Source: Patescibacteria group bacterium
GTDB taxonomy: Bacteria; Patescibacteriota; Minisyncoccia; UBA6257; 2-01-FULL-56-20
Reading direction: 5' to 3'
Length of the DNA stretch: 64,000 nucleotides
Assembly (NCBI GenBank): GCA_028865305.1
Contig: JAGWKM010000003.1
Span: 4,820-68,819 of the forward strand
Of the stretch, positions 20,136-56,417 are shown one piece after another. Both the position numbers and the translations under genes were made by a program. Below the pieces are notes generated by a model. That model worked only from the letters and a program-made list of their open reading frames with translations, was not told where the DNA came from and did not search any database. Each line of letters starts with the position of its first letter. The stretch's first letter is position 1.

Positions 20136-20153
20136 TTTTTCTACTTCTCCACA

Positions 20154-23980: not shown

Positions 23981-24128
23981 ACTAATATCTAATTAATAAT
24001 TAATAACGAATGTCCAAGGTTAAATTTCCAACGGACATTCGGTCATTATCCATTCGTTATTAATTATTAATTAGAAATTTCCCCAACAATCCATTCGTTA
24101 TTAATTAGATATTATTAATTAGAAATTT
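23981..24128 (+). repeat. Family-A AT-rich palindromic element, copy A1 (full length)
   Basis: 22-bp perfect inverted repeat AATTAATAATTAATAACGAATG (23991-24012) / CATTCGTTATTAATTATTAATT (24051-24072) with a 38-nt loop. A third arm follows after AGAAATTTCCCCAACAATC. Confidence 0.9.
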
Positions 24129-24552: not shown

Positions 24553-24566
24553 TGTAATGGTCAGTC

Positions 24567-24600
24567 CATTTGTCATTTGTCATTTGTCATTTGTCATTTG
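24567..24600. repeat. Tandem (CATTTGT)x~5 immediately upstream of pilC
   Basis: catttgtcatttgtcatttgtcatttgtcatttg ends 7 nt before ATG 24608. Confidence 0.9.
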
Positions 24601-24607
24601 ATCACCC

Positions 24608-25734: not shown

Positions 25735-25885
25735 GATTAATAATATCTAATTAATAACGAATGGATTGTTGGGGAAATTTCTAATTAATAATTAATAATT
25801 AATAACGAACGCCTAATGCTCGAATGTCCATCAGACATTTCTCCTTGGATATTCGTTTTAATTATTAATTAGACATTATTAATTT
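25735..25885 (-). repeat. Family-A element, copy A2 (inverted relative to A1)
   Basis: ttaataatatctaattaataacgaatggattgttggggaaatttctaattaataattaataattaataacgaa...attcgttttaattattaattag. The head is the reverse complement of the A1 tail. Confidence 0.88.
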
Positions 25886-32638: not shown

Positions 32639-32722
32639 GTAGAATGTAGAAAGTAGAAGGTAGAAAGGTAGTCTGCTCATTCTCCATCTTCCATTCTCCA
32701 TCTTCCATTCTCCATCCTACTT
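32638..32722. repeat. Heptad-periodic hairpin element between the T-box terminator and the aspS start
   Basis: tagaatgtagaaagtagaaggtagaaaggtagtctgctcattctccatcttccattctccatcttccattctccatcctac. Confidence 0.85.
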
Positions 32723-32733
32723 TTTACCCCCTT

Positions 32734-34146
32734 ATGCAACGAACTCACATTGCGGATATAATTAAAGAAGAAGGCAAGACGGTGACTCTCGCCGGCTGGG
32801 TGCATGCGCGGCGCGACCACGGCAAACTGGTTTTCATCGACTTGCGCGACCGGAGCGGCATCGTGCAGGTGGTTTTCGGGCCGGATGTCGCCGGTGCTTC
32901 GGAGCTGCGGTTGGAATATGTCATCAAAGTGAAGGGCGAAGTGAAAAAGCGGCCGCCGTCGATGGTGAATGACAAGATCCCGACCGGCGCCTTCGAGATC
33001 GGCGCGACGGAATTGGAAATCCTGAACCGGTCCGGTGAAATGCCGATCCCGGTCGATACCGACGGCTTCGACATCAACGAAGAGCGGCGGCTGCAGTATC
33101 GCTATCTCGACCTGCGCCGCGAACGGTTAAAAAACAACATCATCGCGCGGCACAAGGTCATCAAATTCATCCGTGATTTCTTGGCGGAGCGCGGCTTTAT
33201 TGAAATCGAAACGCCGAACCTTTCAAAATCGACGCCCGAAGGCGCGCGCGATTACCTCGTGCCGTCGCGCATCCAAAAAGGGAATTTTTATGCCTTGCCG
33301 CAATCGCCGCAGCAGTATAAGCAGCTTTTGATGGTGGCCGGGCTCGAAAAATATTTCCAAATTGCGCGTTGTTTCCGCGATGAGGACACGCGCGGCGACC
33401 GCCAGCCGGAATTCACCCAGCTCGATTTCGAGATGAGCTTCGTTGCGCGCGAAGACGTGATGGCGCTGAACGAGGAACTTTTGATCGCTATCGTCAAAAC
33501 GTTATATCCGCAGAAAAAAATCCAGGAAATCCCGTTCCCGCGCATCAGCTATGCGGAAGCGATGCAAAAATACGGCACCGACCGGCCGGACATGCGGAAA
33601 GATAAAAATGATCCGGATTTATTGGCATTTTGCTGGGTCATCGATTTCCCGTTTTTTGAAAAAGTGAAAGCGGATGCCGCGCACTCCGAAGCCTCGGCGC
33701 AGGAGTGGACGTTTACCCACAATCCGTTTTCGGCACCCAAACCGGAATTTATGGCGGATTTGCTTGCAAAGAAAAATATCCCGGACATTCTGACGACGCA
33801 GTACGATGTCGCGATGAACGGTTTGGAAGTCGGCGGCGGCAGCATCCGCAACCATCAGCCGGAAGCGCTCGAAGCGGTGTTCGAAATTATGGGTTTCAAA
33901 AAAGAGCGGATCTATGCGAACTTCGGCCACATGCTCGAGGCCTTGAGTTTCGGCGCGCCGCCGCACGGCGGGATTGCGTGGGGGCTCGACCGTTTGGTAT
34001 CATTACTGCAAAACGAGCCGAACATCCGCGAGGTGATCGCGTTCCCGAAGACTGGCGACGGCCGCGACCCGATGATGGGTTCGCCCGCAGAGGTCGAGGA
34101 GAAACAATTGAAGGAGTTGGGCATCGAAATAAAAAAGAAATCGTAG
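32734..34146 (+). CDS. aspS: Aspartate--tRNA ligase, short form lacking the GAD insertion
   Basis: OB-fold start GWVHARRDHGKLVFIDLRDRSG, motif 2 FQIARCFRDEDTRGDRQPEFTQLD and motif 3 GGGSIRNH...GIAWGLDRL. Only 470 aa. Confidence 0.92.
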   Translation: MQRTHIADIIKEEGKTVTLAGWVHARRDHGKLVFIDLRDRSGIVQVVFGPDVAGASELRLEYVIKVKGEVKKRPPSMVNDKIPTGAFEIGATELEILNRSGEMPIPVDTDGFDINEERRLQYRYLDLRRERLKNNIIARHKVIKFIRDFLAERGFIEIETPNLSKSTPEGARDYLVPSRIQKGNFYALPQSPQQYKQLLMVAGLEKYFQIARCFRDEDTRGDRQPEFTQLDFEMSFVAREDVMALNEELLIAIVKTLYPQKKIQEIPFPRISYAEAMQKYGTDRPDMRKDKNDPDLLAFCWVIDFPFFEKVKADAAHSEASAQEWTFTHNPFSAPKPEFMADLLAKKNIPDILTTQYDVAMNGLEVGGGSIRNHQPEALEAVFEIMGFKKERIYANFGHMLEALSFGAPPHGGIAWGLDRLVSLLQNEPNIREVIAFPKTGDGRDPMMGSPAEVEEKQLKELGIEIKKKS

Positions 34147-34222
34147 AATAGTTAATCGTAGAATGTATAATGGAGAATGAAGAACGTATAATGGGTTAAC
34201 CCATTCTCCATTCTCCATTTCC
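34144..34222. repeat. Heptad-periodic hairpin element (centre GGGTTAACCC) between aspS and ndk
   Basis: tagaatagttaatcgtagaatgtataatggagaatgaagaacgtataatgggtt | aacccattctccattctccatttcc. Contains the aspS stop TAG and ends at the base before the ndk ATG. Confidence 0.9.
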
Positions 34223-34807
34223 ATGAAACATCCCAAAGAAGAACTTACGTTTGCGATGGTGAAACCGGATGGCGTGCGGAAAGGTTTGACGGGTGAAATC
34301 ATCAAACGCTTTGAGCAGCGCGACCTGAAAATTGTGGCGCTTGAAATGTTCACGCCGAGCGTGAAGCAGATCGATGACCATTATCCGAAAGACGAGGCCT
34401 GGATCCGCCGGCTTGGCCAGAAATCGCTTTCGACCTATGAGAAATATGGCATTGATCCGGTGAAAGAATTGGGCACCGCGGATGACCTTGAAATCGGCAA
34501 GAGCGTCCGTAAGTGGCTGATCGATTACATGACCTCCGCGCCGCTCGTGAAAATGGTGGTGCAGGGGATCCATGCCGTGGATGTGGTCCGGAAGATCGCG
34601 GGGCCGACGCTGCCGTACAAGGCTGAAGTCGGCACGATCCGCGGCGATTTTTCGATTGATTCGCCGCTCCTTGCAAACAGCGAAAAACGAGCCGTGATGA
34701 ATCTTATTCACGCCTCCGAAACGCCCGAGGAGGCCGCGCATGAAATCGAGCATTGGTTTGGCAAAATAAAGCTGAATGAATACAAAAGGTTCGGCGTGGA
34801 CGAATAA
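34223..34807 (+). CDS. ndk: Nucleoside-diphosphate kinase (long form with insertion)
   Basis: ELTFAMVKPDGVRKGLTGEIIKRFE, GTIRGDFS and NLIHASE (active-site His) motifs. Confidence 0.88.
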   Translation: MKHPKEELTFAMVKPDGVRKGLTGEIIKRFEQRDLKIVALEMFTPSVKQIDDHYPKDEAWIRRLGQKSLSTYEKYGIDPVKELGTADDLEIGKSVRKWLIDYMTSAPLVKMVVQGIHAVDVVRKIAGPTLPYKAEVGTIRGDFSIDSPLLANSEKRAVMNLIHASETPEEAAHEIEHWFGKIKLNEYKRFGVDE

Positions 34808-34853
34808 AGCGCTCGGATATCGGATAAAAGATTAAAATTTTATTAAAATATTC

Positions 34854-34885
34854 GGATTAGATTCGACGATCGTCGGATATAATCC
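34854..34885. repeat. Family-C palindrome copy 2 (intergenic, upstream of the NUDIX gene)
   Basis: ggattagattcgacgatcgtcggatataatcc. Confidence 0.8.
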
Positions 34886-34892
34886 TTTTGAC

Positions 34893-35402
34893 ATGGAACT
34901 CGATCCGCGGTTACATTTTGTAGTGGTGACGGGGATTGTGGCGAAGTTGGAAAATGGGACGCCAAAATTCCTGATCGCGAAGCGCGCACCGACGGAAAAA
35001 GCGTTCCCGAACAAATGGACCGTGCCGGGCGGCAAGCTCGTGCGGACCGAATATGAAAATTTGCCCAAGCGGCCGTATGTGGAAGGCCAGAAGCCGAGCG
35101 AGGCGCCGCAGTGGTATAACCTGGTTGAATGGGTGTTGCGGAAGGAAGTGATGGAAGAAGTGAACGTCGAAATCGAATCGCCGAAATATCTGACTGATCT
35201 TGTCTTTATCCGCCCCGACGGTTATCCCGTCGCCACGCTTTCCTATTGGGCGATGTACAAATCCGGAGACCCCAAGCCGGGCAAGGATTTAACGGAGGTG
35301 GCCTGGGTCACCGCCGCCGAGGCGAAGCAGCATGACATGATAGAGGGCATTCCGGAGGAAATCGCGGAGGTGGAGAGGATAATTGTAGAACGTATAATGT
35401 AG
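34893..35402 (+). CDS. NUDIX hydrolase
   Basis: WTVPGGKL ... LRKEVMEEVNVEI form a Nudix box split by an insertion. Confidence 0.7.
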   Translation: MELDPRLHFVVVTGIVAKLENGTPKFLIAKRAPTEKAFPNKWTVPGGKLVRTEYENLPKRPYVEGQKPSEAPQWYNLVEWVLRKEVMEEVNVEIESPKYLTDLVFIRPDGYPVATLSYWAMYKSGDPKPGKDLTEVAWVTAAEAKQHDMIEGIPEEIAEVERIIVERIM

Positions 35403-35416
35403 AATGTAGAATGGGA
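35383..35416. repeat. Purine-type half-arm of a heptad palindrome (left flank of 4HB cassette 1)
   Basis: ttgtagaacgtataatgtagaatgtagaatggg. Contains the NUDIX stop TAG. Confidence 0.8.
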
Positions 35417-35438
35417 TTAAAAAATTATTAAATAACTT

Positions 35439-35467
35439 TTGCAGACTTCAGATCCACATGCTATGAA
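35439..35467 (+). promoter_or_regulatory. Cassette-borne promoter TTGCAG-N17-TATGAA, 6 nt before ATG 35474 (leaderless)
   Basis: Read directly. Homologous in position to the promoter of the second cassette (38887-38914). Confidence 0.55.
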
Positions 35468-35473
35468 TGGCAT

Positions 35474-35881
35474 ATGGCAACTCAAAAAATTGAACAATTT
35501 ACCGATCTCAACGCATGGAAAGAATCTCACAAATTAGCCTTATTTGTTTATAAAGCAACAAAAATCTTCCCCAAGGAAGAAATGTTTGGGTTAGCGAACC
35601 AGATGAGACGGGCCGCCGTCTCGATCACTTCAAATATTGCTGAAGGATTCGGAAGGCGAAGCAGCAAGGAAAAGCTCCAGTTTTATTATCTTTCCAAGGG
35701 TTCTTTAAACGAAGAAAAGAACCAGCTTTTAATATCCCGTGATGTCGGATATTTGGAAAACGATCTTTTTACAGAAGGTATGAAGCAAGCCAATATTGCG
35801 GATCAATTATTACAAGGATTAATTCGTTCTGCGGCATTGAGGACTGGCTCTTATTTCCGTAATAATACCTCCAGCCACTGA
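35474..35881 (+). CDS. Four-helix-bundle protein (23S rRNA intervening-sequence protein / Avd-like family), copy 1
   Basis: FTDLNAWKESHKLALFVYKATKIFPKEEMFGLANQMRRAAVSITSNIAEGFGRRS.KE...FYYLSKGSLNE is the TIGR02436/PF05635 signature. AT-rich. Confidence 0.85.
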   Translation: MATQKIEQFTDLNAWKESHKLALFVYKATKIFPKEEMFGLANQMRRAAVSITSNIAEGFGRRSSKEKLQFYYLSKGSLNEEKNQLLISRDVGYLENDLFTEGMKQANIADQLLQGLIRSAALRTGSYFRNNTSSH

Positions 35882-36459
35882 ACGCCCCGCAATTCCTGCA
35901 GCCCATTTTTGACGATGATAAATTTTCCAGCCAGTTCTTCTATATCTTTTTGAGAGTAGAAATAAAACATCCTTTTTCCAAACTTGTCCTCCTTCAATAT
36001 TTTTTCGTAATTATCCTTATGCTTTAAAGAAATGCGCATTGCGCCGCCTTCATTAAGTGCCGCATATGAATGCGCCAGGATCTCTTTCAAGCTTTCCTTT
36101 GGTACATGAAGCAGCGAAGCAAAGGCAAAAATTATATCCAAACCATCCGGGAAAAAAAAGTTTTCTATGTCCGCAACCTCAAACCGGCCGTTTGGCACTT
36201 TCCTTTTGGCGAGCGCAATCATCCCTTCGGAAATATCTATGCCTAGATAATCATTCGTTTCCTTGATAATTTCCTCTGTGTCCCTGCCATTCCCGCAGCC
36301 GATTTCCAGAATTTTCGGATTTATTTTATCTACAAGCTGAAAGGTTTCTCTTATATCAGAAATCCGCACTCCTATTTCATCAAATTTGGCAGCGAGCTGA
36401 TGCGCGCTATTATTGTAAGCATCAACCGTTTGCGATTTTTCCTCCTGAAAATTATTCAT
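35851..36459 (-). CDS. Class I SAM-dependent methyltransferase
   Basis: ILEIGCGNGRDT (motif I) and LDIIFAFASLLH. Its 3' end overlaps the 4HB gene by 31 nt (convergent). AT-rich. Confidence 0.8.
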   Translation of the reverse strand: MNNFQEEKSQTVDAYNNSAHQLAAKFDEIGVRISDIRETFQLVDKINPKILEIGCGNGRDTEEIIKETNDYLGIDISEGMIALAKRKVPNGRFEVADIENFFFPDGLDIIFAFASLLHVPKESLKEILAHSYAALNEGGAMRISLKHKDNYEKILKEDKFGKRMFYFYSQKDIEELAGKFIIVKNGLQELRGVQWLEVLLRK

Positions 36460-36506
36460 GATTTTCAACTGAATATGGGATGAAACGTAGAATACAAAAA
36501 GAGTCC

Positions 36507-36540
36507 GCCCATTATACATTCTCCATTATACATTCTTCCT
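36507..36540. repeat. Pyrimidine-type half-arm of a heptad palindrome (right flank of 4HB cassette 1)
   Basis: gcccattatacattctccattatacattcttcc. Contains the prfA stop (TAA on the minus strand, 36526-36528). Confidence 0.8.
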
Positions 36541-37260
36541 TTCCAAAAACGCTTTCACGATGGGATCCATATCACCTTCTAAAATCTTTTCAATATTATG
36601 CCATTTTTTGCCGATGCGGTGGTCGGTGATGCGATCGTCGGGGAAGTTGTAAGTGCGGATTTTTTCGGAGCGGTCGGCGGAGCCGATTTGCTCGCGGCGG
36701 AGGTCGGTGACGGAACCGGTGGCCCGTTGCTGTTCGATCTCCCAGAGCTTGGCGCGCAGGATGTCGAGCGCCTTTTCGCGGTTTGCGTGTTGGGAGCGTT
36801 CTTCACGCGAGCTGACGACGATGCCGGTGGGTTTGTGCAGGATGCGCACGGCAGTTTCCACTTTGTTGACGTTTTGGCCGCCAGGGCCGCCGGCGCGCGA
36901 GAAAGTGACTTCGAGGTCGTTCGGATTGATGTTCACTTCGCGCGCCTCGACGATCGGCAAGACCGCGACCGAGGCCGTTGAAGTGTGCACGCGCCCGGAT
37001 TTTTCGGTCGAGGGCACCCGCTGTACGCGATGCACGCCGGATTCATATTGGAAGGCCTCATAGCTGCCCTGGCCTTCGATTTCCGCCACGAGAGATTTGA
37101 ACCCGTTCAAGGTGCTTTCATTTTTATCGAGAACCGAAAACCGCCAGCCGCGTTTAGCCGCATAGCGCTGGTACATCCGACCCAGGTCTCCGGCAAAAAG
37201 CGACGCCTCATCGCCGCCCGCCCCCGCCCGGATTTCAAGAATAAGCTTGTTGGTGGTCAT
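36526..37260 (-). CDS. prfA: Peptide chain release factor 1-type protein lacking N-terminal domain 1
   Basis: Starts at [26 protein letters not shown], which aligns with E. coli RF1 around residue 107. Has the [17 protein letters not shown] (PxT-type tripeptide), [20 protein letters not shown] (GGQ) and [15 protein letters not shown] motifs. Confidence 0.8.
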
Positions 37261-37298
37261 TTGAGCATTATGATATCTAAAATCTATAATTTCGGCAA

Positions 37299-37324
37299 CA
37301 AAAAAATCCCTCACGGGGAGGGAT
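37299..37324 (-). terminator. Intrinsic terminator (minus strand) between the membrane protein gene and prfA
   Basis: The minus strand reads ATCCCTCC-CCGT-GAGGGAT followed by TTTTTTT. Confidence 0.75.
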
Positions 37325-37346
37325 GGGATTGTAAACGACCGGATAT

Positions 37347-38075
37347 TCAACTTTCTTCCGGCTTGGCCGCGAAACATGGCGCAGTTTCTCTTTTCGGTTT
37401 GCCTTCGGTCGCGGCGAAAAGCATCCGCTCGACCCTGCGCTTCAGGAGATGCGCGGTTGCGAGGAAAAAAACCGTGATGCCGATCAAGCTCCACAGCAGC
37501 TTTGGCTCCGCCGGAAAAAACAATCCAAGCAAAGCAAAGGATGCCATTTTGAGGAGGTTGCCGGCGAGGAGCGAGCGGTATGCCCGCCACTCATCCAATT
37601 TGAAATTCAAAGCATAATTTACGCCGACCGGGATACAGCCGGGATAGAGGCCGAAGAAGAACAGCGGCCGGTAATAGCGGGCCGATCTTCTTGCGGCTGC
37701 TGTGTCGAGCGTGCCGACGGGTTTCGGCACGTAGCGGTTATCAAGCCAGCGCAGGACGCCGTGCAATTTCCGGATCCACGAAGAGGAGATCCTTTTCGGA
37801 TTGGCCCGCCTCATCCACGAGAACAGCGGGAAATACGAAAAGGTGTCATAGCTGCTGCAAGCGGCCGCCATGCAAAACGCCGTCGGGCTCGCGAAACCGT
37901 GGAGCCGCCAGAATCCGAGTGATGCTTCGCCGTTCACAAACGTGAGGAGAAGGTTCAATCCATATTTTGCATGGATGCTGAAAGCGGCAACGACGGCCGC
38001 AAGCGCCGCGATGGAGATAGCGGTCCAGATTCTCATTGCCGTTTTCGGCACAAGTCCTCCTAAGATTGGAATCAA
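37347..38075 (-). CDS. Polytopic membrane protein, family not recognised
   Basis: 242-aa hydrophobic ORF followed by a terminator. Start may be at internal Met 38036. Confidence 0.55.
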
Positions 38076-38120
38076 GAAAACTGGTTGTAAGTATAGAAGA
38101 TATTGTTTAAAATATCCATT

Positions 38121-38879
38121 ATGATTTCATTTTCGGGCGTGACGAAGTCCTATGGCAAAGGCAAAAAGCTACGGACCGTGGTGGACGATTTCACGCTGGA
38201 TGTCGACGTGCCGATTTTCGGCTTTTTAGGGCAAAACGGGGCTGGGAAGACGACTATCATGAAAATGACGGTAGGATTGCTCATGCCGACTGCGGGAACG
38301 ATCGGGATTGACGGCGTCCCGTCGCAAAGCGCCGCGGCAAAGTCCAAAATTGGCTTCATGCCCGAAACACCGTATTTTTATGAGCGGATGACGGGAATTG
38401 ATTTCCTGCGGTTCTGCGATGAACTGTATGGCAGCCCCGAAAAGGACCATCGGGGGCGCTACGAAACCATTCTGAAAAAAGTCGGCATTTTCGAGGCGCG
38501 CAGCCAGGAGATCCGCACCTATTCAAAGGGCATGCGCCAGCGGTTGGGGTTTGCGCAAGCGCTCGTGAACGATCCGGAATACCTGTTTTTGGATGAGCCG
38601 CTCGACGGCCTGGATCCGCTCGGCCGGCGCGAGATGAAGGCGGTGATGTTGCGGCTGAAAAGCGAAGGCCGGAAGATTTTTCTCAATACCCACATCCTCT
38701 ATGATGTCGAAGAGATCTGTGACGAGGTGGGTATCATTCACGAAGGGAAATTATTATACGCCGGCGGCGTGAAGGAATTTTGCGCGGGGAAGCCGCTCGA
38801 GGAGCGGTTTGTGGAAACGGTCACGGGTGCGAAGAATGGAGTACGGAGAATGGAGAATGAATTATTAAAAATTCATTAA
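38121..38879 (+). CDS. ABC transporter ATP-binding protein
   Basis: Walker A GQNGAGKTT, signature YSKGMRQRLGFA and Walker B LFLDEPLDGLD. The C-terminal tail GAKNGVRRMENELLKIH is encoded by a heptad array plus the cassette edge. Confidence 0.88.
   Translation: MISFSGVTKSYGKGKKLRTVVDDFTLDVDVPIFGFLGQNGAGKTTIMKMTVGLLMPTAGTIGIDGVPSQSAAAKSKIGFMPETPYFYERMTGIDFLRFCDELYGSPEKDHRGRYETILKKVGIFEARSQEIRTYSKGMRQRLGFAQALVNDPEYLFLDEPLDGLDPLGRREMKAVMLRLKSEGRKIFLNTHILYDVEEICDEVGIIHEGKLLYAGGVKEFCAGKPLEERFVETVTGAKNGVRRMENELLKIH
38829..38866. repeat. GAGAATG-type purine arm at the left flank of 4HB cassette 2
   Basis: gcgaagaatggagtacggagaatggagaatgaatt. Confidence 0.8.
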
Positions 38880-38886
38880 ATAACAT

Positions 38887-38914
38887 TTGCAAATTAAAAC
38901 GCACATGCTATGAC
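38887..38914 (+). promoter_or_regulatory. Cassette-borne promoter TTGCAA-N16-TATGAC, 6 nt before GTG 38921 (leaderless)
   Basis: Read directly. The flanking sequence ATTAAATAAC.TTTGCA......CACATGCTATGA is shared with cassette 1. Confidence 0.55.
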
Positions 38915-38920
38915 GAAGAT

Positions 38921-39289
38921 GTGGAAAATAGAATCAAAAAGTTTACCGATCTCAACGCATGGAGAGAAGCCCATAAGCTTGTTTTGTATATTTATAGAAT
39001 TACAAGGTCGTTTCCTAAAGAGGAAATTTTTGGTTTAACAAATCAAATGAGACGGGCAGCTGTATCTATAACTTCAAATATTGCAGAGGGATTTGGAAGA
39101 CGCAGTTTTAAGGACAAAGCACGGTTTTATTATTTGGCAAAGGGATCGATAAACGAAGAGAAAAATCAAATTTTGATTTCTCATGACATCGATTATTTAT
39201 GCGATGCTGAATTTCAGGAAGGTATACAGCAGGCTGACATTGCAGATCAACTTTTACAGGGTTTAATTAATTCAACAGAAAAAGGATAA
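38921..39289 (+). CDS. Four-helix-bundle protein (23S rRNA IVS / Avd-like family), copy 2
   Basis: FTDLNAWREAHKLVLYIYRITRSFPKEEIFGLTNQMRRAAVSITSNIAEGFGRRS. Paralogue of the 35474 gene with high identity by eye. AT-rich; GTG start. Confidence 0.85.
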   Translation: MENRIKKFTDLNAWREAHKLVLYIYRITRSFPKEEIFGLTNQMRRAAVSITSNIAEGFGRRSFKDKARFYYLAKGSINEEKNQILISHDIDYLCDAEFQEGIQQADIADQLLQGLINSTEKG

Positions 39290-39290
39290 T

Positions 39291-39354
39291 GATGGAGGTG
39301 GAATTGGGGTGATTTTATCCCATTCTCCATTCTCCATTCTCTATCCTCCATCCC
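39291..39354. repeat. Heptad hairpin / pyrimidine arm at the right flank of 4HB cassette 2
   Basis: gatggaggtggaattggggtgattttatcccattctccattctccattctctatcctccatccc ends at the base before ATG 39355. Confidence 0.8.
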
Positions 39355-40119
39355 ATGCGCAACATCTGGATTATCGCCAAAAACACTTTTAAGCTTGAGA
39401 TCAAAGACCGCATCTGGATCGGCATCCTGGTCTTCGGCATTTTTTACGTCGTGCTCACCTTGTTCCTTTCCGACCTGGTCCTCCGCGAACTGCCCATGGT
39501 GAAAAGTTTCGGCCTTACCGGCATTTATTTCTTCAACGCGATCGTGGCGCTTTTCCTCGGCACGACGTCGTTCTACAAAGATGTGGACCGCAAGACGGTT
39601 TACTTCATCCTATCGAAGCCGGTGTCGCGCGCGCAGTTTCTGGCGGGAAAATTCCTCGGGCTCTGCCTGCTGCTTTTCGTCACGACCGCCATTTTGGCCG
39701 TCGGCTATTTGGCCGTCATCGCCTGGAATGGCGGCGGGTTTGACGCGATCGGTTTGCTTGCGATTGCGATGCAATTCTTGGAAATGGCGCTTTTTGTGGC
39801 GTTCGCGATTTTCGTCTCGACGTTTTCGAGCTCGCTGCTTTCGATCGTTTACACCTCCGCCGTTTTTTTCCTCGGCCATATCGTGAGCGCGCTTCTCGCT
39901 GATGCGCGCGAACTTGGCCTCGGCGGCATCCAATATTTCTTCGTGCAGGTTTTGTATTACGTATTCCCGAACCTTGAGAAATTCGACCTCCGCGGCATGG
40001 CAGTGCATGCCGTCGCGCTGCCCGGCGATGCATTCGTGCTGGCGCTCATTTACGCCGCCGCATATATCGCGCTGCTCTTAATGGCAAGCATGTGGGTGTT
40101 TGAGAAGAAAGAGATTTGA
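39355..40119 (+). CDS. ABC-2-type transporter permease
   Basis: Six TM segments. Position and size fit a permease partner of the 38121 ATPase. Confidence 0.7.
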   Translation: MRNIWIIAKNTFKLEIKDRIWIGILVFGIFYVVLTLFLSDLVLRELPMVKSFGLTGIYFFNAIVALFLGTTSFYKDVDRKTVYFILSKPVSRAQFLAGKFLGLCLLLFVTTAILAVGYLAVIAWNGGGFDAIGLLAIAMQFLEMALFVAFAIFVSTFSSSLLSIVYTSAVFFLGHIVSALLADARELGLGGIQYFFVQVLYYVFPNLEKFDLRGMAVHAVALPGDAFVLALIYAAAYIALLLMASMWVFEKKEI

Positions 40120-40128
40120 TGTGAATGA

Positions 40129-40214
40129 CTAATTAATAATTAATAACGAATGCCCAATATCGGAATGCCCAACGGATATTATGCATTGGACATTCGTTAT
40201 TAATTATTAATTAG
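40129..40214. repeat. Family-A element, copy A3 (hairpin module only)
   Basis: Perfect 24-bp inverted repeat CTAATTAATAATTAATAACGAATG / CATTCGTTATTAATTATTAATTAG with a 38-nt loop. Confidence 0.9.
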
Positions 40215-40233
40215 ACATTAGCCATTTCAAAAA

Positions 40234-41085
40234 ATGTCCGCCATTTTTTATCGCACCACCGCCCTCATCCTCCTTCTCCTCGCCGTCACTTCCGCCCAGT
40301 TTTATTACGACGTCGCGAAGCTGCCCGGCGTCCGATGTTCTTCCGCCGACCGCGACTGCCAGACGGTGTTTTCGCCCGAGGCCATCCGCCTCATCGACCT
40401 CGGCTTCAACGCAACCATCGGCTCATTCCTCTGGGCCGGCACCATGCCGGAGATTTTGGACCTCTTTTTAAACGATAAAACCGAATATATTCCCGATGTC
40501 CGCTATATAAACGCGGTCGACCCGAAGCTCAGCTATCCGTACGCGTTTTCAGTGCTCACGTTGCCGGCCATTTCAACGGCCACGTATCCGCAGGCGATCA
40601 CCGAAGCGCAACGGATCGGCGAGCGGGGATTGTTGCACGCCGACCCGGACTGGCGTATTCCGTATTACATGGCCATCAATTATTTCCTTGAGCTGAAGGA
40701 CGGCGAGGATGCCTTGAAATATTTCGATATTGCCGCACAGACGCCGGGCATTCCGGATTTCGCCAAACGGTTCGCGGAAAATTTCGGCATCGGCGCGAAC
40801 GACCGGAAGAAGGTGGAAGAACTTTGGGCAACCATCCGCGACTCGACAAACGATCCGGATACGAAAGCGCGCGCGCAGGCGTATATCGACCGGTTGCAGA
40901 TATTCGATTATCTGGAGGCCGCGGCGAAAGTTTATAAGCAGCGCTTCGGTTCGTGGCCGGCCGCGCCGCAAGTTATGGCGGATAAAGGCATCATCCCGTT
41001 CGTGCCGCAGGACCCGTTCGGTTATACGTTTATCATCAATAAAGACGGTTCGGCGGGAATAAATGTGAATAAGTATCCGGGGTAG
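40234..41085 (+). CDS. Membrane-anchored hypothetical protein (helical-repeat-like)
   Basis: N-terminal TM ALILLLLAVTSA. The remainder is helix-rich with no recognised motif. Confidence 0.55.
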   Translation: MSAIFYRTTALILLLLAVTSAQFYYDVAKLPGVRCSSADRDCQTVFSPEAIRLIDLGFNATIGSFLWAGTMPEILDLFLNDKTEYIPDVRYINAVDPKLSYPYAFSVLTLPAISTATYPQAITEAQRIGERGLLHADPDWRIPYYMAINYFLELKDGEDALKYFDIAAQTPGIPDFAKRFAENFGIGANDRKKVEELWATIRDSTNDPDTKARAQAYIDRLQIFDYLEAAAKVYKQRFGSWPAAPQVMADKGIIPFVPQDPFGYTFIINKDGSAGINVNKYPG

Positions 41086-44645: not shown

Positions 44646-47201
44646 ATGCGCGATAAAATTACAATCAAAGGGGCGCGAGAGCACAATCTAAAGAACGTTA
44701 ATCTCGAGATTCCGCGCGATAAAATGGTCGTTTTCACGGGGCTTTCGGGCTCGGGCAAATCGAGCTTGGCTTTTGATACGATCTTCGCGGAGGGCCAGCG
44801 GCGGTATATCGAGTCGCTTTCGGCGTACGCGCGGCAGTTTTTGGGTCGGCTCGACAAGCCGGACGTGGATGACATTGAAGGGCTGTCGCCCGCGATTTCG
44901 ATCGACCAGAAATCGCATTCGGCGAACCCGCGTTCGACCGTCGCGACCATCACGGAAATTTACGATTATCTCCGCGTGCTCTTCGCGCGCGCCGGCAAGC
45001 CATTCTGCCCGCGTTGCGGCCGGGAGATCAAAAAGATGACGAACGAGGAGATCGTCGATATTGCGATCGATATTTCCGAGGAGAATGGAGGACGGAGAAT
45101 GGAGAGTGGATTGGTTTCCAAGAAAACGCTTGGTAAAAATCTGCTGATCCTTGCGCCGGTCGTCCGCGGGCGAAAAGGGGAGTATTACCAGATGCTCTAT
45201 GATTTCCTGAATGCCGGGTTCAGCGAGGTGCGCATCGACGGCAAATTCCATTCGTTGCGCGACCGGGTTGAATTGAGCCGCTACAAATCGCACGACATTG
45301 ACCTCGTGATCGACCGCATGCCGGCCGGGATGAATTTCAAAGACAAGGACAACCGCCTGCGCCTCGCTGAAGCGATCGAGTCGGGCATCAAGTACGGCAA
45401 CGATGTCGTGACAATCATCACCGACAAGGAAGTTTCGCTTTCGGCAAAGTTCACCTGCCCGCACGACGGTTTTTCATTCCCCGAAATCGAGCCGCGCCTG
45501 TTTTCGTTCAATAGTCCCTACGGCGCGTGCCCGGAATGCCATGGTTTGGGCGTGAAAGATATTTGGTCGGATGAGATATGCCCGGTCTGCGAAGGCAAGC
45601 GTTTGCGCGAAGAGAGTCTGAATGTGCTCGTCAACGATAAAAGCATCGTGATGGTGACGGCGCTTTCCATCGAGCGGGCGTATGAGTTTTTCAGCAAGAT
45701 GAAATTCGCGACGGCATCGATGGCGGAGGTCGCGGAAACGCCTCTCCGCGAGATCAAGAGCCGGCTGAAGTTCATGATCGACGTCGGCTTGGAATACCTG
45801 ACGCTCGACCGCAAGGCCGGAACGCTTTCCGGCGGCGAGGCGCAGCGCATCCGGCTGGCGTCGCAAATCGGTTCGCGGCTTGTCGGCACGCTCTATATTT
45901 TGGATGAACCGACGATCGGCCTCCATCAGCGCGACAATTTGAAACTGATCCAGACCTTGCAGGAGCTGCGCGATTTGGGGAACACGATCGTGGTCGTTGA
46001 GCACGATGAAGACACGATCCGCGCGTCGGATTATTTGGTCGACGTCGGGCCCGGAGCCGGCGTGCATGGCGGCAGGATCGTGGCGGCCGGGCCGGTGCCG
46101 GAAATTTTGAAAGATTCGAAGCAGGACTCGCTTACCTTGCAATATCTGCGCGGCAAGAAATTCATCGAGGTGCCCGATGAGCGTCGCAAAATCGATTCGA
46201 AGCGCGAGCACCTGAAGATCCGCGGCGCGCACGCGAACAACCTGAAAAATATAAACGTAGATATTCCGCTCCGGCGTTTTACGGCCGTGACTGGCGTCTC
46301 GGGCAGCGGCAAGTCATCGCTCGTGTACGATGTGCTCTATGAAGCCGTGGCGGCGAAATTAAACCGAACGAAAGCGCCCCCCGCGAAAGCATCTTCCATC
46401 CTCGGCCTGGAATATATTAACCGCATCATAAACATCGACCAGGCCGCGATCGGCCGCACGCCGCGCTCAAATCCGGCGACGTACGTCGGCGCCTGGACGC
46501 ACATCCGCGACCTTTTCGCCTCAACCGAAGACGCCCGCGTGCGCGGCTACAAGCCCGGCCGGTTCAGCTTCAACGTGCCCGGCGGCCGCTGTGAAAACTG
46601 CGAAGGCCACGGCACGATCGCGATTGAGATGCACTTCCTGCCGACCGTCTACGTCACCTGCGATATCTGTAAGGGCAAGCGCTTCGACCGCGAGACGCTC
46701 GAAGTCGAATACAAGGGGAAAAATATCTACGACATTTTACGGATGACGATCGAGGAAGCCGTGAAGTTCTTCGAAGACATCCCGTGGCTCTATGAAAAAC
46801 TCACCATCTTGGAAGAGGTTGGCTTGGGCTATCTTGAACTTGGCCAATCAGCCACGACGCTCTCCGGCGGCGAAGCCCAGCGCATCAAGCTCTCGGCCGA
46901 ACTCGGCAAGCGCGACACGCGCCGCACGTTGTATTTATTGGACGAGCCAACCACCGGCCTCCATTTCGCCGACATCGACCAGCTCATCAAAGTCCTGCAA
47001 CGTTTAGTTGATCGCGGTAACACCGTCGTCGTGATTGAACACAATTTAGACGTGATAAAAACCGCCGACTGGGTAATTGATTTAGGCCCCGAAGGCGGCG
47101 AGCGAGGAGGCCAGATAATAGCCACGGGAACCCCCGAAGAAATAGCAAGGAAGAAAGGCAGTTTCACAGGGGAATACCTAAGGAAAACATTACAGAAGTA
47201 A
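44646..47201 (+). CDS. uvrA: Excinuclease ABC subunit A (short, 851 aa)
   Basis: [35 protein letters not shown], the Zn modules CPRCG / CPECHG / CENCEG...CDICKG, and two ABC signatures LSGGEAQRI. Confidence 0.93.
45078..45110. repeat. GAGAATG-family heptads in frame inside uvrA
   Basis: gaggagaatggaggacggagaatggagagtgga encodes [11 protein letters not shown]. Confidence 0.85.
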
Positions 47202-49703: not shown

Positions 49704-50966
49704 GTGAAACGCAAGGATTACAAAAAACTGCCGGAGACGCCGGGCGTTTATCTCATGAAAGATACCGGCGGCAAAATCCTCTATGTCGGCAAAGCGGGCA
49801 ACCTGCGCCGGCGGGTTTCAAGCTATTTTGAACGGCCCCATGACGTGCGGATCGAGAAACTGGTAAGCAAGATAGCGAGCATCGATTTTGAAGAAACCGA
49901 TTCGACCCTTGAAGCCCTGATCCGCGAAGCCCGGCTCATCCGCGAACTCACACCGCCCTTCAACGTGAAGGAAAAAGACGATAAGAGTTTTTTATACATC
50001 GAGATCACGAAGGAAAAATTTCCCCGCGTGCTTTTGGCGCGCGGGCATGATGTAGGAACAGGAAACAGGAAACCGGGAACAGGGAACCTATTTGGGCCGT
50101 TTACCTCGGCAACGGGCGCGCGAGAGGCATTGCGGATTTTAAGGAGAATTTTCCCGTGGAGCACGCACGAAACCGAAGGGAAAAGCGGAAAGAAAAAAGA
50201 AAAAAGGGCGTGCTTCGATTACGAACTCGGTCTTTGCCCCGGAACCTGCATCGGCGCCATCAGCGAGCGGGAGTATAAAAAGAACATTGCCCATCTGAAG
50301 CTCTTCCTCGAGGGCAAGAAAAAAAAGCTGATCGCCGCGCTCGAAAAAGAAATGGCGGCGGCGGCCAAAACTATGGAATTCGAAAAAGCGGCAAAACTGC
50401 GCGGCCAGGTTTTTGCGTTGAAGCACATAAGAGATACGGCACTGATGGGGAAAGAGGAGAATGGAGAATGGAGGACGGAAAATGGAACAAGGTTTCGCAT
50501 CGAGGGCTACGACATATCGAATATTTCCGGCACTGCAGCCGTGGGGTCGATGGTGGTTTTCGAAAATGACCAGCCGGATAAAAATGAATACAGGAAGTTC
50601 AAAATAAAAACGGTATTCCAACCCAACGATGTCGGTATGCTCACGGAAATGCTTGAGCGGCGTTTTCGCCATTCTCCCGTTCTCCGTTCTCCGTTCTCCA
50701 TTTTGCACCCATGGCCTCTCCCCGGCCTCATCCTCATCGACGGCGGTTTGGCGCAGGTGAATGCGGCAAACAAAGTGCTGCTCCGCGCCGGGCTGAAAAT
50801 ACCGGTCGTCGGTATCGCGAAAGGCCCGGAACGGAAGCGGAACGACATCATCGGCCTCGTGCCGAAGGGCGTAAAAAAGGAAACACTGATCCGGGTGCGG
50901 AACGAGGCGCACAGGTTCGCGATCAGTTATCACAAAAAATTGAGAGGCGTAAACGCGCTGCATTGA
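49704..50966 (+). CDS. uvrC: Excinuclease ABC subunit C, short form without the C-terminal (HhH)2
   Basis: GIY-YIG PGVYLMKDTGGKILYVGKAGNLRRRV, UVR motif MEFEKAAKLRGQVFAL, and endonuclease part IEGYDISNISG ... RVRNEAHRFAISYH. GTG 49704 chosen because TTG 49629 lies inside the upstream terminator. Confidence 0.88.
   Translation: MKRKDYKKLPETPGVYLMKDTGGKILYVGKAGNLRRRVSSYFERPHDVRIEKLVSKIASIDFEETDSTLEALIREARLIRELTPPFNVKEKDDKSFLYIEITKEKFPRVLLARGHDVGTGNRKPGTGNLFGPFTSATGAREALRILRRIFPWSTHETEGKSGKKKEKRACFDYELGLCPGTCIGAISEREYKKNIAHLKLFLEGKKKKLIAALEKEMAAAAKTMEFEKAAKLRGQVFALKHIRDTALMGKEENGEWRTENGTRFRIEGYDISNISGTAAVGSMVVFENDQPDKNEYRKFKIKTVFQPNDVGMLTEMLERRFRHSPVLRSPFSILHPWPLPGLILIDGGLAQVNAANKVLLRAGLKIPVVGIAKGPERKRNDIIGLVPKGVKKETLIRVRNEAHRFAISYHKKLRGVNALH
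50054..50087. repeat. GGAACAG-family heptads in frame inside uvrC
   Basis: aggaacaggaaacaggaaaccgggaacagggaacc encodes GTGNRKPGTGN. Confidence 0.85.
50454..50488. repeat. GAGAATG-family purine array in frame inside uvrC
   Basis: gaggagaatggagaatggaggacggaaaatggaac encodes [11 protein letters not shown]. Confidence 0.85.
50668..50703. repeat. Complementary pyrimidine array in frame inside uvrC
   Basis: gccattctcccgttctccgttctccgttctccattt encodes HSPVLRSPFSIL. Roughly complementary to the 50454 array ~180 nt upstream. Confidence 0.85.
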
Positions 50967-51074: not shown

Positions 51075-51506
51075 ATGGATTCTCCTAAGAAAAATGGTGG
51101 GATATGGGACATGGGACATGGAAAGCCGTTCCTCGACGGACCGGAGCCTTCGGACACGCTCGCTCCCCGGATTCTGCATTGCATTGAAGATCGCGAGCGG
51201 CGGGATTTGCGCATGAAAATGGCCGTCTTTGGGGCAATGTTCATGGGTTCGCTTTCGGCGGCCGTTGCCGGTTTTTTGAATTTCGGGGCCCAGGTTTCGC
51301 AGTCCGGCTTTTTATCATTCGCCTCACTTTGGTTTTCTGATTTTTCGGCGGCCATTGCCAATTGGTCTGACATGCTCTCTTCAATGGTGGAATCATTTCC
51401 GGCCTTGCCCGCGGCATTGGTCCTGGGCGGCGTTGCGTTTGCAGCTTGGTCGGCCGGGAAGCTGGTTTCTGAAATAACCCTCATGCGGATGCACCGGCTG
51501 TCATGA
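51075..51506 (+). CDS. Hypothetical membrane protein
   Basis: Two or three TM segments. 4-nt overlap with the next gene. Confidence 0.5.
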   Translation: MDSPKKNGGIWDMGHGKPFLDGPEPSDTLAPRILHCIEDRERRDLRMKMAVFGAMFMGSLSAAVAGFLNFGAQVSQSGFLSFASLWFSDFSAAIANWSDMLSSMVESFPALPAALVLGGVAFAAWSAGKLVSEITLMRMHRLS

Positions 51507-53853: not shown

Positions 53854-53998
53854 AAATTTCTAATATCTAATTAATAATTAATAACGAATGTCTAAAGTTA
53901 AATTTCCAACGGACATTTGGCATTACACATTCGTTATTAATTAGTCATTATTAATTAGATATTTCCCCAACAACACATTCGTTATTAATTAGAAATTT
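53854..53998 (+). repeat. Family-A element, copy A4 (full length)
   Basis: gaaatttctaatatctaattaataattaataacgaatg...cattcgttattaattag...atttccccaacaacacattcgttattaattagaaattt. Confidence 0.9.
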
Positions 53999-56388: not shown

Positions 56389-56417
56389 ACAAAAGGTCGT
56401 CGATACAGAAACAAATT

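Follow-up and report, generated by a model that had tools for sequence, protein, structure and literature searches.

An ABC transporter operon in a 64,000-nucleotide stretch of Patescibacteria DNA (the window) is split between its ATPase and permease genes by an AT-rich cassette of 35% GC, here cassette 2, in which a gene of the S23p / 23S rRNA intervening-sequence protein family lies between inverted heptamer arrays, and we consider it probable that this segment is a module of the intervening-sequence (IVS) type that sits outside rRNA, in the junction of a protein-coding operon. The locus comprises the following features:

38121-38879, + strand: ABC transporter ATPase gene (PF00005), conserved core up to 38822 (residue 234)
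38831-38859, + strand: left arm, heptamer array GAAGAAT GGAGTAC GGAGAAT GGAGAAT G, paired as an inverted repeat with the right arm
38857-38879, + strand: small local palindrome ATGAATTATTAAAAATTCATTAA at the cassette edge, including the ATPase stop codon; a hairpin in MFE and centroid folds
38864-38920, + strand: non-coding leader conserved with cassette 1 (35416-35473): AT-rich block, TTGCAA, 16-nt diverged spacer, CACATGCTATGA
38921-39289, + strand: four-helix-bundle (4HB) gene of the S23p / 23S rRNA intervening-sequence protein family, 122 aa, GTG start (PF05635, TIGR02436)
39321-39349, + strand: right arm, inverted heptamer array CATTCTC CATTCTC CATTCTC TATCCTC, ending 5 nt before the permease ATG
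39355-40119, + strand: ABC-2 permease gene (PF12679)

That AT-rich DNA parts the ATPase from the permease had been proposed in an initial annotation, and the open reading frames, the domains and the GC content (34-37% in the cassette, ~55% in its flanks) agree with it. The same annotation placed a paralogous 4HB gene between the two, which is borne out by matches of the encoded protein to PF05635 (118.3 bits, cut-off 33.8, E = 2.1e-34) and TIGR02436 (111.5 bits, cut-off 24, E = 2.2e-32), with similar scores for the protein of cassette 1, which is 71% identical to it and encoded by the only other copy in the window. The cassette 2 protein contains the core motif RRAAVSIxSNIAEG, and its residues 8-119 align by sequence homology (E = 4.5e-23) with XCC0516 of Xanthomonas campestris (PDB 2GSC), the closest solved structure, a homopentameric toroid of four-helix bundles. 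Between the two 4HB reading frames the synonymous sites are saturated (pS 0.82, pN 0.19), and the cassettes are therefore ancient paralogues with no recent copying; the protein itself is under purifying selection. An ATG at 38919, the counterpart of the cassette-1 start, is 1 nt out of frame in cassette 2, so that the gene needs its GTG start.

The complementary borders of the cassette give a stable terminal stem around the ORF, as expected of an IVS, while the site itself lies between ABC ATPase and permease genes and not in an rRNA helix; when the entire window was compared with Rfam at gathering thresholds, neither rRNA nor any other family was matched. The arms, 27 nt long and 85% complementary, form a predicted duplex of -42 kcal/mol with 15 contiguous perfect pairs, and they pair in MFE and centroid folds alike (38800-39380). 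They correspond to the purine array and the pyrimidine arm next to the permease ATG that had been named earlier as the bounds of the cassette. The left arm is stop-free in all six frames, and the ATPase frame was correctly described as reading through it into the cassette edge: similarity to orthologues ends at residue ~234 (..EERFVETV; tblastn, 80 orthologous loci), and the last 18 residues, TGAKNGVRRMENELLKIH (38823-38876, stop 38877-38879), are coded by the heptamer array and the cassette edge. Since this C-terminal tail is hypervariable among the orthologues (2-50 residues), its rewriting is probably neutral.

Comparison with 80 orthologous ATPase-permease loci from different genomes supports the view that the cassette was inserted between the two genes. 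The ABC_tran ATPase and the ABC2_membrane permease are neighbours in 80/80 of them, as in an ABC-2 type transporter operon; the 4HB gene is missing at 79, and there is thus no conserved ATPase-4HB-permease trio. In most of these loci the stop codon of the ATPase either shares an ATGA with the permease start or is separated from it by less than 20 nt, with the ATGA overlap present in most close orthologues, which suggests that the permease is translationally coupled to the ATPase in relatives. In the closest relative (L174, permease 88% identical), the orthologous junction holds an empty heptamer hairpin; in L174 and L175, two independent assemblies, the arms of this hairpin are in register with those of the window, and the ~440-nt cassette is the only gap. 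A further relative at 80% identity (L176) has the ATGA overlap. The junction thus occurs in three states, namely the ATGA overlap found in most relatives, which we take as ancestral, the empty heptamer hairpin of the closest relative, and the hairpin with 4HB cassette of the window; the cassette is thus secondary to the two ABC genes and does not encode a transporter subunit. The empty hairpin further implies that a hairpin loop either gained or lost a cassette, and the sequences would fit either a gain in the window lineage or a loss in L174. The ATPase/permease junction of a distant lineage (L059) has received a 4HB gene independently, also with heptamer arms. Homologues of the permease numbered 495, belonging to Patescibacteria/Paceibacterota in every named case; exact-sequence look-ups of the window permease, the cassette 2 4HB protein and P0001 matched no record.

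The second 4HB gene of the window lies in a paralogous module, and further hairpins of the same class as the cassette arms hold no gene:

35385-36538, + strand: cassette 1, with left array 35385-35412, leader 35416-35473 and 4HB gene 35474-35881
35851-36519, - strand: class I methyltransferase gene in cassette 1, convergent, with its start codon within the right array 36511-36538
34158-34223, + strand: empty heptamer hairpin between AspRS and Ndk-like genes, loop GGGTTAACCC
15638-15696, 20018-20136, 21127-21238, 23351-23416, 32639-32720 and 61859-61923: other empty heptamer hairpins

Cassette 1 splits a NUDIX/methyltransferase pair, and its arms form a predicted duplex of -31 kcal/mol. The left-junction sequence said to be shared by the two cassettes proved highly significant in a pairwise alignment, with 45/59 bases identical and a score of 27 against -4 +/- 3.8, maximum 11, in 2000 shuffles; the common blocks are ATTAAAAA..ATTAAATAAC.TTTGCA and CACATGCTATGA. 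This leader is conserved far above the synonymous sites of the 4HB ORFs and had no homologue in any of 160 other loci searched, and is therefore private to the two cassettes of this genome. The promoter proposed for cassette 2 stands as far as its parts are concerned, with TTGCAA (38887-38892), 16 nt, TATGAC (38909-38914), 6 nt and the GTG in place and with TG-n-TATGAC, an extended -10, contained in CACATGCTATGA (38902-38913); a sigma-70 consensus scan makes no call there, because the -10 hexamer lacks the T at position 6, and both points count against transcription from a promoter of its own. Conserved -35 and extended -10 blocks with a diverged spacer nevertheless fit the pattern of a promoter, which we regard as a candidate only; as the -10 box ends 6 nt before the start codon, its mRNA would have little or no leader.

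Rather than being private to the cassette, the arms belong to a window-wide class of inverted heptamer hairpins that are mostly empty, at least seven of them in the window. With up to 3 mismatches allowed, the pattern GGAGAATGGAGAATG occurs 79 times in the window where 2.3 occurrences are expected, and ~29 period-7 arrays compare with 0-3 for each of periods 5, 6, 8 and 9, so that, as in STRR-like heptanucleotide repeats, the 7-nt period is enriched and the arrays lie at gene junctions. Other heptamer families of the window (TAATTAA, TGACAAA, GTTGCTG) have no 4HB gene near. The earlier proposal of an independent insertion of the same cassette type at the same kind of target is supported with these refinements, the arms not being specific to a cassette and the two cassettes being ancient paralogues.

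The same architecture recurs in other loci and lineages. Among 80 metagenome loci with the closest 4HB relatives from Patescibacteria, inverted repeats flank 59% of the 4HB ORFs and 7% of other ORFs (Mann-Whitney p = 3e-19), and 115 period-7 arrays lie within 200 nt of 4HB genes, with no excess of periods 5, 6, 8 or 9; one or more such arrays are near the 4HB gene in 66/80 loci. Neighbouring genes are co-directional with the 4HB gene upstream in 60/62 and downstream in 59/66 cases, at median gaps of 28 and 22 nt, and cassette 2 is likewise co-directional with its neighbours. Away from the 4HB gene, the density of period-7 arrays per 10 kb is 2.75 in 4HB loci, ~6 times the 0.48 of ABC loci, and 4.16 in the window. 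In a strict register test, for which 38-nt windows abutting the start or stop codon had to reach at least 70% self-identity at lag 7, 20/75 starts and 5/75 stops scored, compared with 2/254 controls; arrays at 4HB starts and stops are enriched, yet often imperfect or offset. Where they are in register in relatives, the arrays enter the start codon and resume at the stop codon (ATGAAT...ATTCATAA).

Further afield, period-7-flanked 4HB genes were found on cyanobacterial plasmids as cas10-[4HB]-cmr3, cas6-[4HB]-cas4 and parA-[4HB]-parB, and inverted period-7 arrays also flank the 4HB gene of Gemmatirosa and those of two viral contigs. An Azospirillum copy (L167) lies inside a 23S gene, as an IVS, with heptamers GACAGAA/GACGGAT. 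In Xanthomonadales, accB-[4HB]-accC carries GGGAATC arms, of which the right one is conserved to the accC ATG across three genera, and the N-terminus of the 4HB protein, MGNRES, is coded by the heptamer array; this insertion is fixed across Xanthomonas, Dyella and Lysobacter. A full-text literature search, with most subscription journals outside its reach, returned no paper linking non-rRNA 4HB genes to heptamer arrays.

Among known systems, the 23S rRNA IVSs with an S23p ORF (Coxiella burnetii, Leptospira, Brucella; PMC4990558) share the protein family PF05635 with cassette 2. In the Coxiella IVS, 2-3 GACAGAT heptamers precede the ATG of the S23p ORF, the terminal stem measures 28 bp, and the first heptamer is the site at which RNase III cuts (PMC4990558). 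Common to both are a long terminal stem, of 28 bp in Coxiella and ~27 bp in cassette 2, whose loop is filled by an ORF of ~120 codons, tandem heptamers just 5' of the start codon, a GC content below that of the host and the coexistence of ORF-less versions. In contrast, cassette 2 has an mRNA operon junction for its host transcript where the IVS has an rRNA helix, its arms are longer arrays common to many empty hairpins of the window, and processing by RNase III, known for rRNA IVSs, would apply to its stem by analogy only. In addition, the Coxiella S23p protein is apparently not made and its ORF is reported to be decaying (PMC4990558), whereas the cassette 2 protein is under clear purifying selection, a difference that counts against the IVS-type reading.

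XCC0516 offers a further parallel, as its gene, like that of cassette 2, splits an operon pair (accB-[4HB]-accC) and is flanked by inverted GGGAATC/GAGAATG arrays with a unit nearly identical to that of the window arms, although its insertion is fixed across three genera while that of cassette 2 is lineage-restricted. Over-represented intergenic heptanucleotide repeats have been described as GGGAATC in Xanthomonas (PMC4692102) and as TAACTGA in Beggiatoaceae, Cyanobacteria and Bacteroidetes (PMC4679880). These repeats, STRR and the window arrays are all period-7 tandem arrays at gene junctions, and many of the described ones form convergent inverted pairs (70 of them in X. campestris), many adjoin start codons, and they are transcribed. 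Whereas the papers (PMC4692102, PMC4679880) name no 4HB/S23p genes, genes of this kind are enclosed by arrays in the window, as is the 4HB gene of X. campestris by one GGGAATC pair. An integron gene cassette was also considered and rejected: inverted tandem heptamers flank the ORF at either end in place of a single 3' attC, the ORF stands alone in a housekeeping operon, and no intI was present among the scanned ORFs.

How a module of the IVS type might function in an mRNA can be outlined as follows. It would be transcribed as part of the operon, which has no terminator-like site between ATPase and permease, and perhaps from the conserved -35 and extended -10 of its own leader as well. Once transcribed, the arms would form a stem of ~27 bp between the 3' end of the ATPase ORF and the 35 nt directly 5' of the permease ATG, and by analogy with rRNA IVSs this stem is probably a substrate of RNase III, whose cleavage would free a 4HB mRNA that begins with a very short leader and would part the cistrons of ATPase and permease. 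However, the ATPase stop lies 18 nt inside the loop, so that a cut in the stem would strip the ATPase mRNA of its stop codon and efficient cleavage would be harmful here. Alternatively, or in addition, ribosomes finishing the ATPase might melt the left arm and thereby unmask the permease start, which would keep the coupling that the insertion would otherwise break. As for the protein, nucleic acid is its most likely target, as in the case of its homologue Avd, and the heptamer hairpins themselves are a possible one. PF05635 is homologous to Avd of diversity-generating retroelements (PMC10053308). The fold is homologous too, and the literature describes Avd as a pentamer that binds nucleic acid and reverse transcriptase (RT), which suggests a nucleic-acid-related role for the 4HB protein. 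Recognition of one particular sequence is a different matter: heptamer units elsewhere in a locus do not resemble the units next to its 4HB gene significantly more than they resemble those of other loci (mean distance 2.20 vs 2.41, p = 0.26), which weakens sequence-specific recognition, and we therefore abandoned the idea that the protein recognises one unit specific to each genome.

Tentatively, and short of regarding it as probable, we also entertain a wider possibility, in which PF05635 4HB proteins and heptanucleotide arrays would be two halves of one widespread system. The 4HB gene would then be the coding core of an IVS-like element in transcribed hairpins, in rRNA helices as well as operon junctions, and the intergenic heptamer excess of Cyanobacteria (STRR), Xanthomonas (GGGAATC), Beggiatoaceae/Bacteroidetes (TAACTGA) and Patescibacteria would represent its arms, footprints or binding sites. 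The protein might process or protect the hairpins, or it might take part in templated repeat addition together with a polymerase, as Avd acts with a reverse transcriptase.

Rather unlikely, in our estimate, is that the arms belong to the element, so that the 4HB cassette and its terminal inverted arrays would make up a mobile unit, with arrays that grow by repeated 7-nt duplications at its ends and with the empty hairpins as its MITE- or REPIN-like excision footprints or non-autonomous derivatives. Arrays that run in register with the start codon and restart at the stop codon in relatives, the array-encoded MGNRES of Xanthomonadales, the ~6-fold richness of 4HB loci in period-7 arrays elsewhere and an orthologous hairpin known with and without the cassette would all suit such a unit, and REPIN/RAYT offers an analogy, though only that, in its many dispersed hairpins of which a few copies surround a conserved gene. 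However, the 4HB protein lacks an HUH/Y1 transposase domain, and the arms are tandem heptamers and not a fixed REP sequence. A scan of the cassette and of ten other ORFs of the window, mostly of low GC, revealed no transposase domain, and the ten also included no recombinase or reverse transcriptase (they gave GrpB, a P-loop kinase-like protein, a SocA/HTH pair, a PD-(D/E)XK protein, ribosomal proteins and RF2), and no direct (target-site) duplication was seen outside the inverted arms. Moreover, the two cassettes are ancient paralogues, three heptamer families of the window have no 4HB gene nearby, units within a locus match those beside its 4HB gene no better than chance, and accB-[4HB]-accC is fixed across an order, so that mobility would be rare at best.

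That the 4HB protein serves the transporter as a dedicated accessory or regulatory subunit, encoded in a functional three-gene operon, is very improbable: the three genes are co-directional and tightly packed, and no terminator-like site is predicted between ATPase and permease, but the 4HB gene is absent from 79/80 orthologous operons and from the two closest relatives examined, and its family splits the unrelated pairs accB/accC, cas10/cmr3, parA/parB and NUDIX/methyltransferase in the same way, on which grounds we rejected this reading. We likewise rejected, as hardly credible, an Avd accessory protein of a diversity-generating retroelement, for although the family is homologous (PMC10053308) and NF033474, the Avd-specific model, gives a weak match (E = 7e-4), this match reaches 19.9 bits where the cut-off is 80, the gene lies among ABC genes, the ten scanned ORFs include no RT, and no TR/VR-like direct repeat (template/variable repeat pair) was found in 34000-41000. 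An assembly chimera made at the repeated heptamer arrays, conceivable for a contig of a metagenome-assembled genome whose arms are repeated in the genome, is just as implausible and was rejected, as perfect repeats reach only ~15-21 nt, far below assembler k-mers, the hairpin occupies the same junction in two independent assemblies of the nearest relative, and the architecture recurs in complete plasmids and genomes.

To our knowledge, S23p/4HB proteins have been without a known function since rRNA intervening sequences were described ~30 years ago, and we know of no explanation for the bacterial heptamer repeats (STRR and related) that have been catalogued for equally long. The present comparison places 4HB genes and heptamer arrays in one architecture in every lineage sampled, namely Patescibacteria, Cyanobacteria, Gemmatimonadota, Alpha- and Gammaproteobacteria and two viral contigs, and the IVS-type reading adds mRNA operon junctions to rRNA as a residence of the element. 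Thus, binding or processing of heptamer stems by 4HB proteins, the stems as RNase III sites and the coupling of split gene pairs become questions open to testing. In addition, 4HB genes within cas, acc, par and ABC operons are probably hitchhikers and not components of these systems, which bears on the reported "CRISPR association" of the 4HB domain. For annotation, stop-free heptamer arrays are a source of false fusion ORFs and false C-terminal tails.

The 475 nt between the ABC ATPase and ABC-2 permease genes contain a 122-codon ORF (38921-39289) of the four-helix-bundle (4HB, PF05635/S23p) family, whose nearest solved structure is XCC0516 (PDB 2GSC, E = 4.5e-23). It is one of only two 4HB copies in the window, and the cassette has a GC content of 34-37% against ~55% in its flanks. 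As the initial annotation had described, a purine-rich array and its inverted partner near the permease ATG bracket the gene, and the ATPase frame reads through the left array to a stop codon at the cassette edge, within ATTCATTAA.

Genes and arms of the two cassettes
38121-38879, ABC ATPase (PF00005)
38831-38859, left arm of cassette 2, purine-rich array
38921-39289, 4HB ORF of cassette 2
39321-39349, right arm of cassette 2, inverted partner of the left array, 5 nt short of the permease ATG
39355-40119, ABC-2 permease (PF12679)
35474-35881, paralogous 4HB ORF of cassette 1 (71% protein and ~72% DNA identity to cassette 2)
35851-36519, minus strand, low-GC class I methyltransferase, convergent to the 4HB gene in the same hairpin loop (hairpin 1)

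The window belongs to a Patescibacteria (Paceibacterota) genome; its permease matches a database entry named 'Patescibacteria group bacterium' identically and has 495 homologues, of which every named one bears a CPR name. The loop of cassette 1 additionally contains the methyltransferase gene, whose start codon lies inside the right arm (GGAGAATGTATAATG on the methyltransferase strand). The GGAGAAT arrays contain GGAG-N8-ATG modules in repeated form, in each of which a Shine-Dalgarno-like motif is ideally spaced from an ATG. In cassette 2 the ATG aligned to the cassette 1 start (38919) is 1 base out of frame beside an A-run (38919-38923), so that a GTG start is required, the ORF being open only from GTG 38921; the offset reflects either a true frameshift that the GTG start rescues or an assembly error at the homopolymer.

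The arms are a window-wide element and not the ends of the cassettes. At ≤3 mismatches, GGAGAATGGAGAATG has 79 matches in the window versus 2.3 expected, and these form arrays, mostly convergent inverted pairs between co-directional genes.

Heptamer array pairs in the window
15638-15696, array pair
20018-20136, array pair
21127-21238, array pair
23351-23416, array pair
32639-32720, array pair
34158-34223, array pair
61859-61923, array pair

The loop of a typical empty hairpin, an arm pair with no 4HB gene, is AATGGG-TTAA-CCCATT, and in the occupied hairpins the cassette stands in place of the loop (GAATGGG-[cassette 1]-CCCATT and GAATG-[cassette 2]-CCCATT). The computed duplex of the cassette 2 arms has -42 kcal/mol and 15 uninterrupted pairs, and folding of 38800-39380 gives the long-range stem in the MFE as well as the centroid structure.

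Comparison with 80 orthologous ATPase-permease loci from different genomes supports the initial reading of this arrangement as an insertion, with refinements. In 80/80 loci the permease follows the ATPase directly; in most close relatives the ATPase stop codon overlaps the permease ATG (ATGA) or lies ≤20 nt away, and a conserved three-gene ATPase-4HB-permease operon is absent from the set. Matches to the window ATPase stop at residue ~234 (..EERFVETV), beyond which the orthologues carry tails of 2 to ~50 residues, and given this variation the rewritten 18-residue tail of the window protein is unlikely to matter. Only one locus, L059, from a distant lineage whose permease is 37% identical to the window's, has a 4HB gene at the junction, bracketed by inverted heptamer-like arrays, with the ATPase ending in the left array as in the window. 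Elsewhere the junction holds a heptamer hairpin without a 4HB gene (L044) or unrelated ORFs (L047 and L057/58). The two closest relatives decide the question. At 80% identity, L176 shows the ATGA overlap, and at 88% identity two independent assemblies, L174 and L175, have at this junction a heptamer hairpin with the unit GAAAAAT and no cassette, whose arms align in register with those of the window, the sole large gap being the cassette (~440 nt). As such, these loci and the window represent three states of one junction, namely coupled, hairpin, and hairpin with cassette. Given the age of the split between the two cassettes, loss in L174 is at least as plausible as gain in the window. Four further junctions (L001, L028, L043 and L050) contain a different GC-rich palindromic repeat of the GTCATCCC..GGGATGAC type, into which the ATPase ORF reads. 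Hairpin repeats of several kinds seem to have landed repeatedly at the ATPase-permease junction.

The left junction that the two cassettes had been proposed to share is borne out by alignment, as 45/59 positions are identical in the 59-60 nt leader from array to start, with a score of 27 versus -4 ± 3.8 (maximum 11) for 2000 shuffles. Judged by their sequences, the two ORFs are old paralogues. Their pS of 0.82, at which synonymous sites are saturated, and pN of 0.19 indicate purifying selection on both 4HB proteins, and against this saturation the leader is conserved well beyond the neutral level. One conserved block is an AT-rich stretch with TTGCA(A/G) and the other is CACATGCTATGA; the spacer between them has diverged and measures 16-17 nt, a pattern that would suit a -35 box and an extended -10 box lying 6 nt before the start codon. 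The consensus scan did not call this site in the cassette 2 leader because T6 of the -10 hexamer is absent, and the promoter initially assigned to the cassette is retained as a candidate only. No other locus among the comparison loci searched shares the leader.

The same layout recurs around the 80 closest 4HB relatives, taken from metagenome loci of Patescibacteria. At one and the same score threshold, inverted repeats bracket 59% of the 4HB ORFs versus 7% of the remaining ORFs of these loci (Mann-Whitney p = 3e-19), and within ≤200 nt of the 80 genes there are 115 period-7 arrays versus 0-3 for periods 5, 6, 8 and 9, with at least one such array in 66/80 loci. The heptamer unit varies by locus (most commonly ATGAATT and ATGAATC), and the arrays often enter the start codon in register and restart at the stop codon. 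These genes are inserted co-directionally in tight gene junctions, since neighbours lie on the same strand in 60/62 cases upstream and 59/66 downstream, at median gaps of 28 and 22 nt. Elsewhere in the sequences, period-7 arrays number 2.75 per 10 kb in the 4HB loci, 4.16 in the window and 0.48 in the ABC loci, the density in the former two being about six times that in the last.

The array-bracketed layout is general, being the same in all cases sampled from other groups. Cyanobacterial plasmids have cas10-[4HB]-cmr3, cas6-[4HB]-cas4 and parA-[4HB]-parB, as well as 4HB genes adjoining integrase, conjugation and RNR genes, with the arm units AGTCAGG, GGGTGTA, AAAAGGG, GGAGATA, TAGGGAG and CAGAGGG; in one case the arrays are direct, not inverted. 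Gemmatirosa and two viral contigs share the period-7 arm layout, and an Azospirillum plasmid copy lies within a 23S rRNA gene (heptamers GACAGAA/GACGGAT). In Xanthomonadales (Xanthomonas, Dyella, Lysobacter) the XCC0516 orthologue stands in aroQ-accB-[4HB]-accC, and its left arm, a GGGAATC array, encodes the N-terminus of the 4HB protein. The right arm, GATTCCCCATTC(T/C)CGA(T/C)TCCCTATTCCC, runs up to the accC ATG in Xanthomonas and Dyella but stops 10 nt short of it in Lysobacter; its near-invariance 5' of accC across the order argues for a cis role of the arms in downstream-gene expression. The family comprises ~22,000 clusters at 50% identity (E ≤ 1e-3). The 4HB genes of two cyanobacterial plasmid loci (L163, L165) lie within cas6/cas4 and cas10/cmr3 pairs, and hitch-hiking of this kind may account for the CRISPR association score published for the '23S rRNA IVP' domain. 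In L183, the right arm is stop-free, so that the 4HB ORF continues into a downstream Laminin_G_3 gene and the database protein is 380 aa long.

The operon junction is occupied by an intervening-sequence (IVS)-type module whose 4HB ORF fills the loop of a stem of inverted heptamers. The module, which shares the orientation of the host genes, is secondary to them and is under selection at the level of its protein. In the 23S IVS of Coxiella, an S23p ORF is accompanied by a terminal stem of 28 bp and has two or three GACAGAT heptamers 5' of its ATG; RNase III cleaves at the first heptamer, and the encoded protein has no known function (PMC4990558). CPR rRNA insertions sometimes encode the PF05635/S23p domain. 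The S23p module described here resembles an rRNA IVS and sits in an mRNA operon junction. The cassette would be transcribed together with the ABC operon, and a scan of the ATPase-permease interval found no terminator-like sites. The arms might then pair in the RNA and, by analogy with rRNA IVSs, form an RNase III substrate, cleavage of which would release a 4HB mRNA with a short leader. Efficient cleavage here meets a difficulty, since the loop contains the stop codon of the ATPase and cutting the stem would yield a non-stop mRNA. Alternatively or in addition, the stem might hold the flanking cistrons functionally adjacent by linking the ATPase 3' end to the 35 nt immediately 5' of the permease ATG; ribosomes completing the ATPase would then open the stem and uncover the permease start. 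Homology of PF05635 to Avd, the accessory protein of diversity-generating retroelements (DGRs) (PMC10053308), suggests that the role of the 4HB protein could be nucleic-acid-directed.

The main rival explanation is that the arms belong to a mobile element, of which the empty hairpins are footprints or non-autonomous copies. Such an element would fit the in-register arrays and their genome-level enrichment, but no recombinase was found among the ten window ORFs scanned for mobility genes, and several insertions are too old and too firmly fixed, and the heptamer units too mixed, to agree with it. A transporter subunit, a DGR Avd, an integron cassette and an assembly chimera were each contradicted by direct test.

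In X. campestris, Rehm et al. catalogued 186 GGGAATC repeats, of which 70 occur as convergent pairs, without assigning them a function or mentioning XCC0516 (PMC4692102), and MacGregor described TAACTGA heptamers in Beggiatoaceae, Cyanobacteria and Bacteroidetes (PMC4679880). Our full-text literature search, of incomplete coverage and hence giving absence of evidence only, found no publication linking non-rRNA 4HB genes with heptamer arrays. The cassette 2 element reveals that unexplained heptamer repeats are linked, across phyla, to an uncharacterised protein family.

Further repeats occur in the window.

Further period-7 repeats in the window
13129-13160, GGAGAAT-type array within a long ORF
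14558-14591, GGAGAAT-type array within a long ORF
45080-45107, GGAGAAT-type array within a long ORF
50453-50483, GGAGAAT-type array within a long ORF
50675-50706, GGAGAAT-type array within a long ORF
40124-40219, TAATTAA-family hairpin
23990-24079, TAATTAA-family hairpin
25776-25809, TAATTAA-family hairpin
53868-53889, TAATTAA-family hairpin
54768-54851, TAATTAA-family hairpin
56354-56393, TAATTAA-family hairpin
10233-10280, array with an unrelated unit
22897-22925, array with an unrelated unit
24565-24602, array with an unrelated unit
50055-50080, array with an unrelated unit
51097-51124, array with an unrelated unit

The arrays within long ORFs appear to be in-frame insertions; their hosts are an 805-aa ORF (in its 6-phosphogluconate dehydrogenase part), a MurD-like ligase, UvrA and UvrC, the last with two inverted arrays 195 nt apart. 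The GGAGAAT-type unit is free of stop codons in all six frames, which may explain its tolerance in coding regions. The 805-aa ORF (11458-13875) joins glucose-6-phosphate dehydrogenase (aa 17-469) and 6-phosphogluconate dehydrogenase (aa 503-784) domains, and represents either a genuine fusion or a pair of genes joined through stop-codon loss. A second hairpin family combines the heptamer TAATTAA with CGAATGCCCAAT in 35-nt arms (94% complementarity, -39 kcal/mol); one copy lies immediately 3' of the permease stop, and none of the window copies has a 4HB gene beside it. With the unrelated units (GTTGCTG, TGACAAA/TTTGTCA, GGAAACA and GGGACAT), the constant feature of the window arrays is period 7, not unit sequence. 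At 20039-20136, a 14-unit near-perfect ATTCTCC array stands opposite only ~2 units on the other arm, inside the mechanically called N-terminal extension of an RpiB ORF (19899-20609) whose Pfam domain begins at aa 88; translation probably starts immediately 3' of the array. Finally, at 8684-9752 and 6576-7337, an HTH and SocA/Panacea antitoxin-like gene precedes an ORF of 130 aa that has no annotation (GC 47%), with a PD-(D/E)XK nuclease-family gene nearby, a region that may be a toxin-antitoxin or defence islet.
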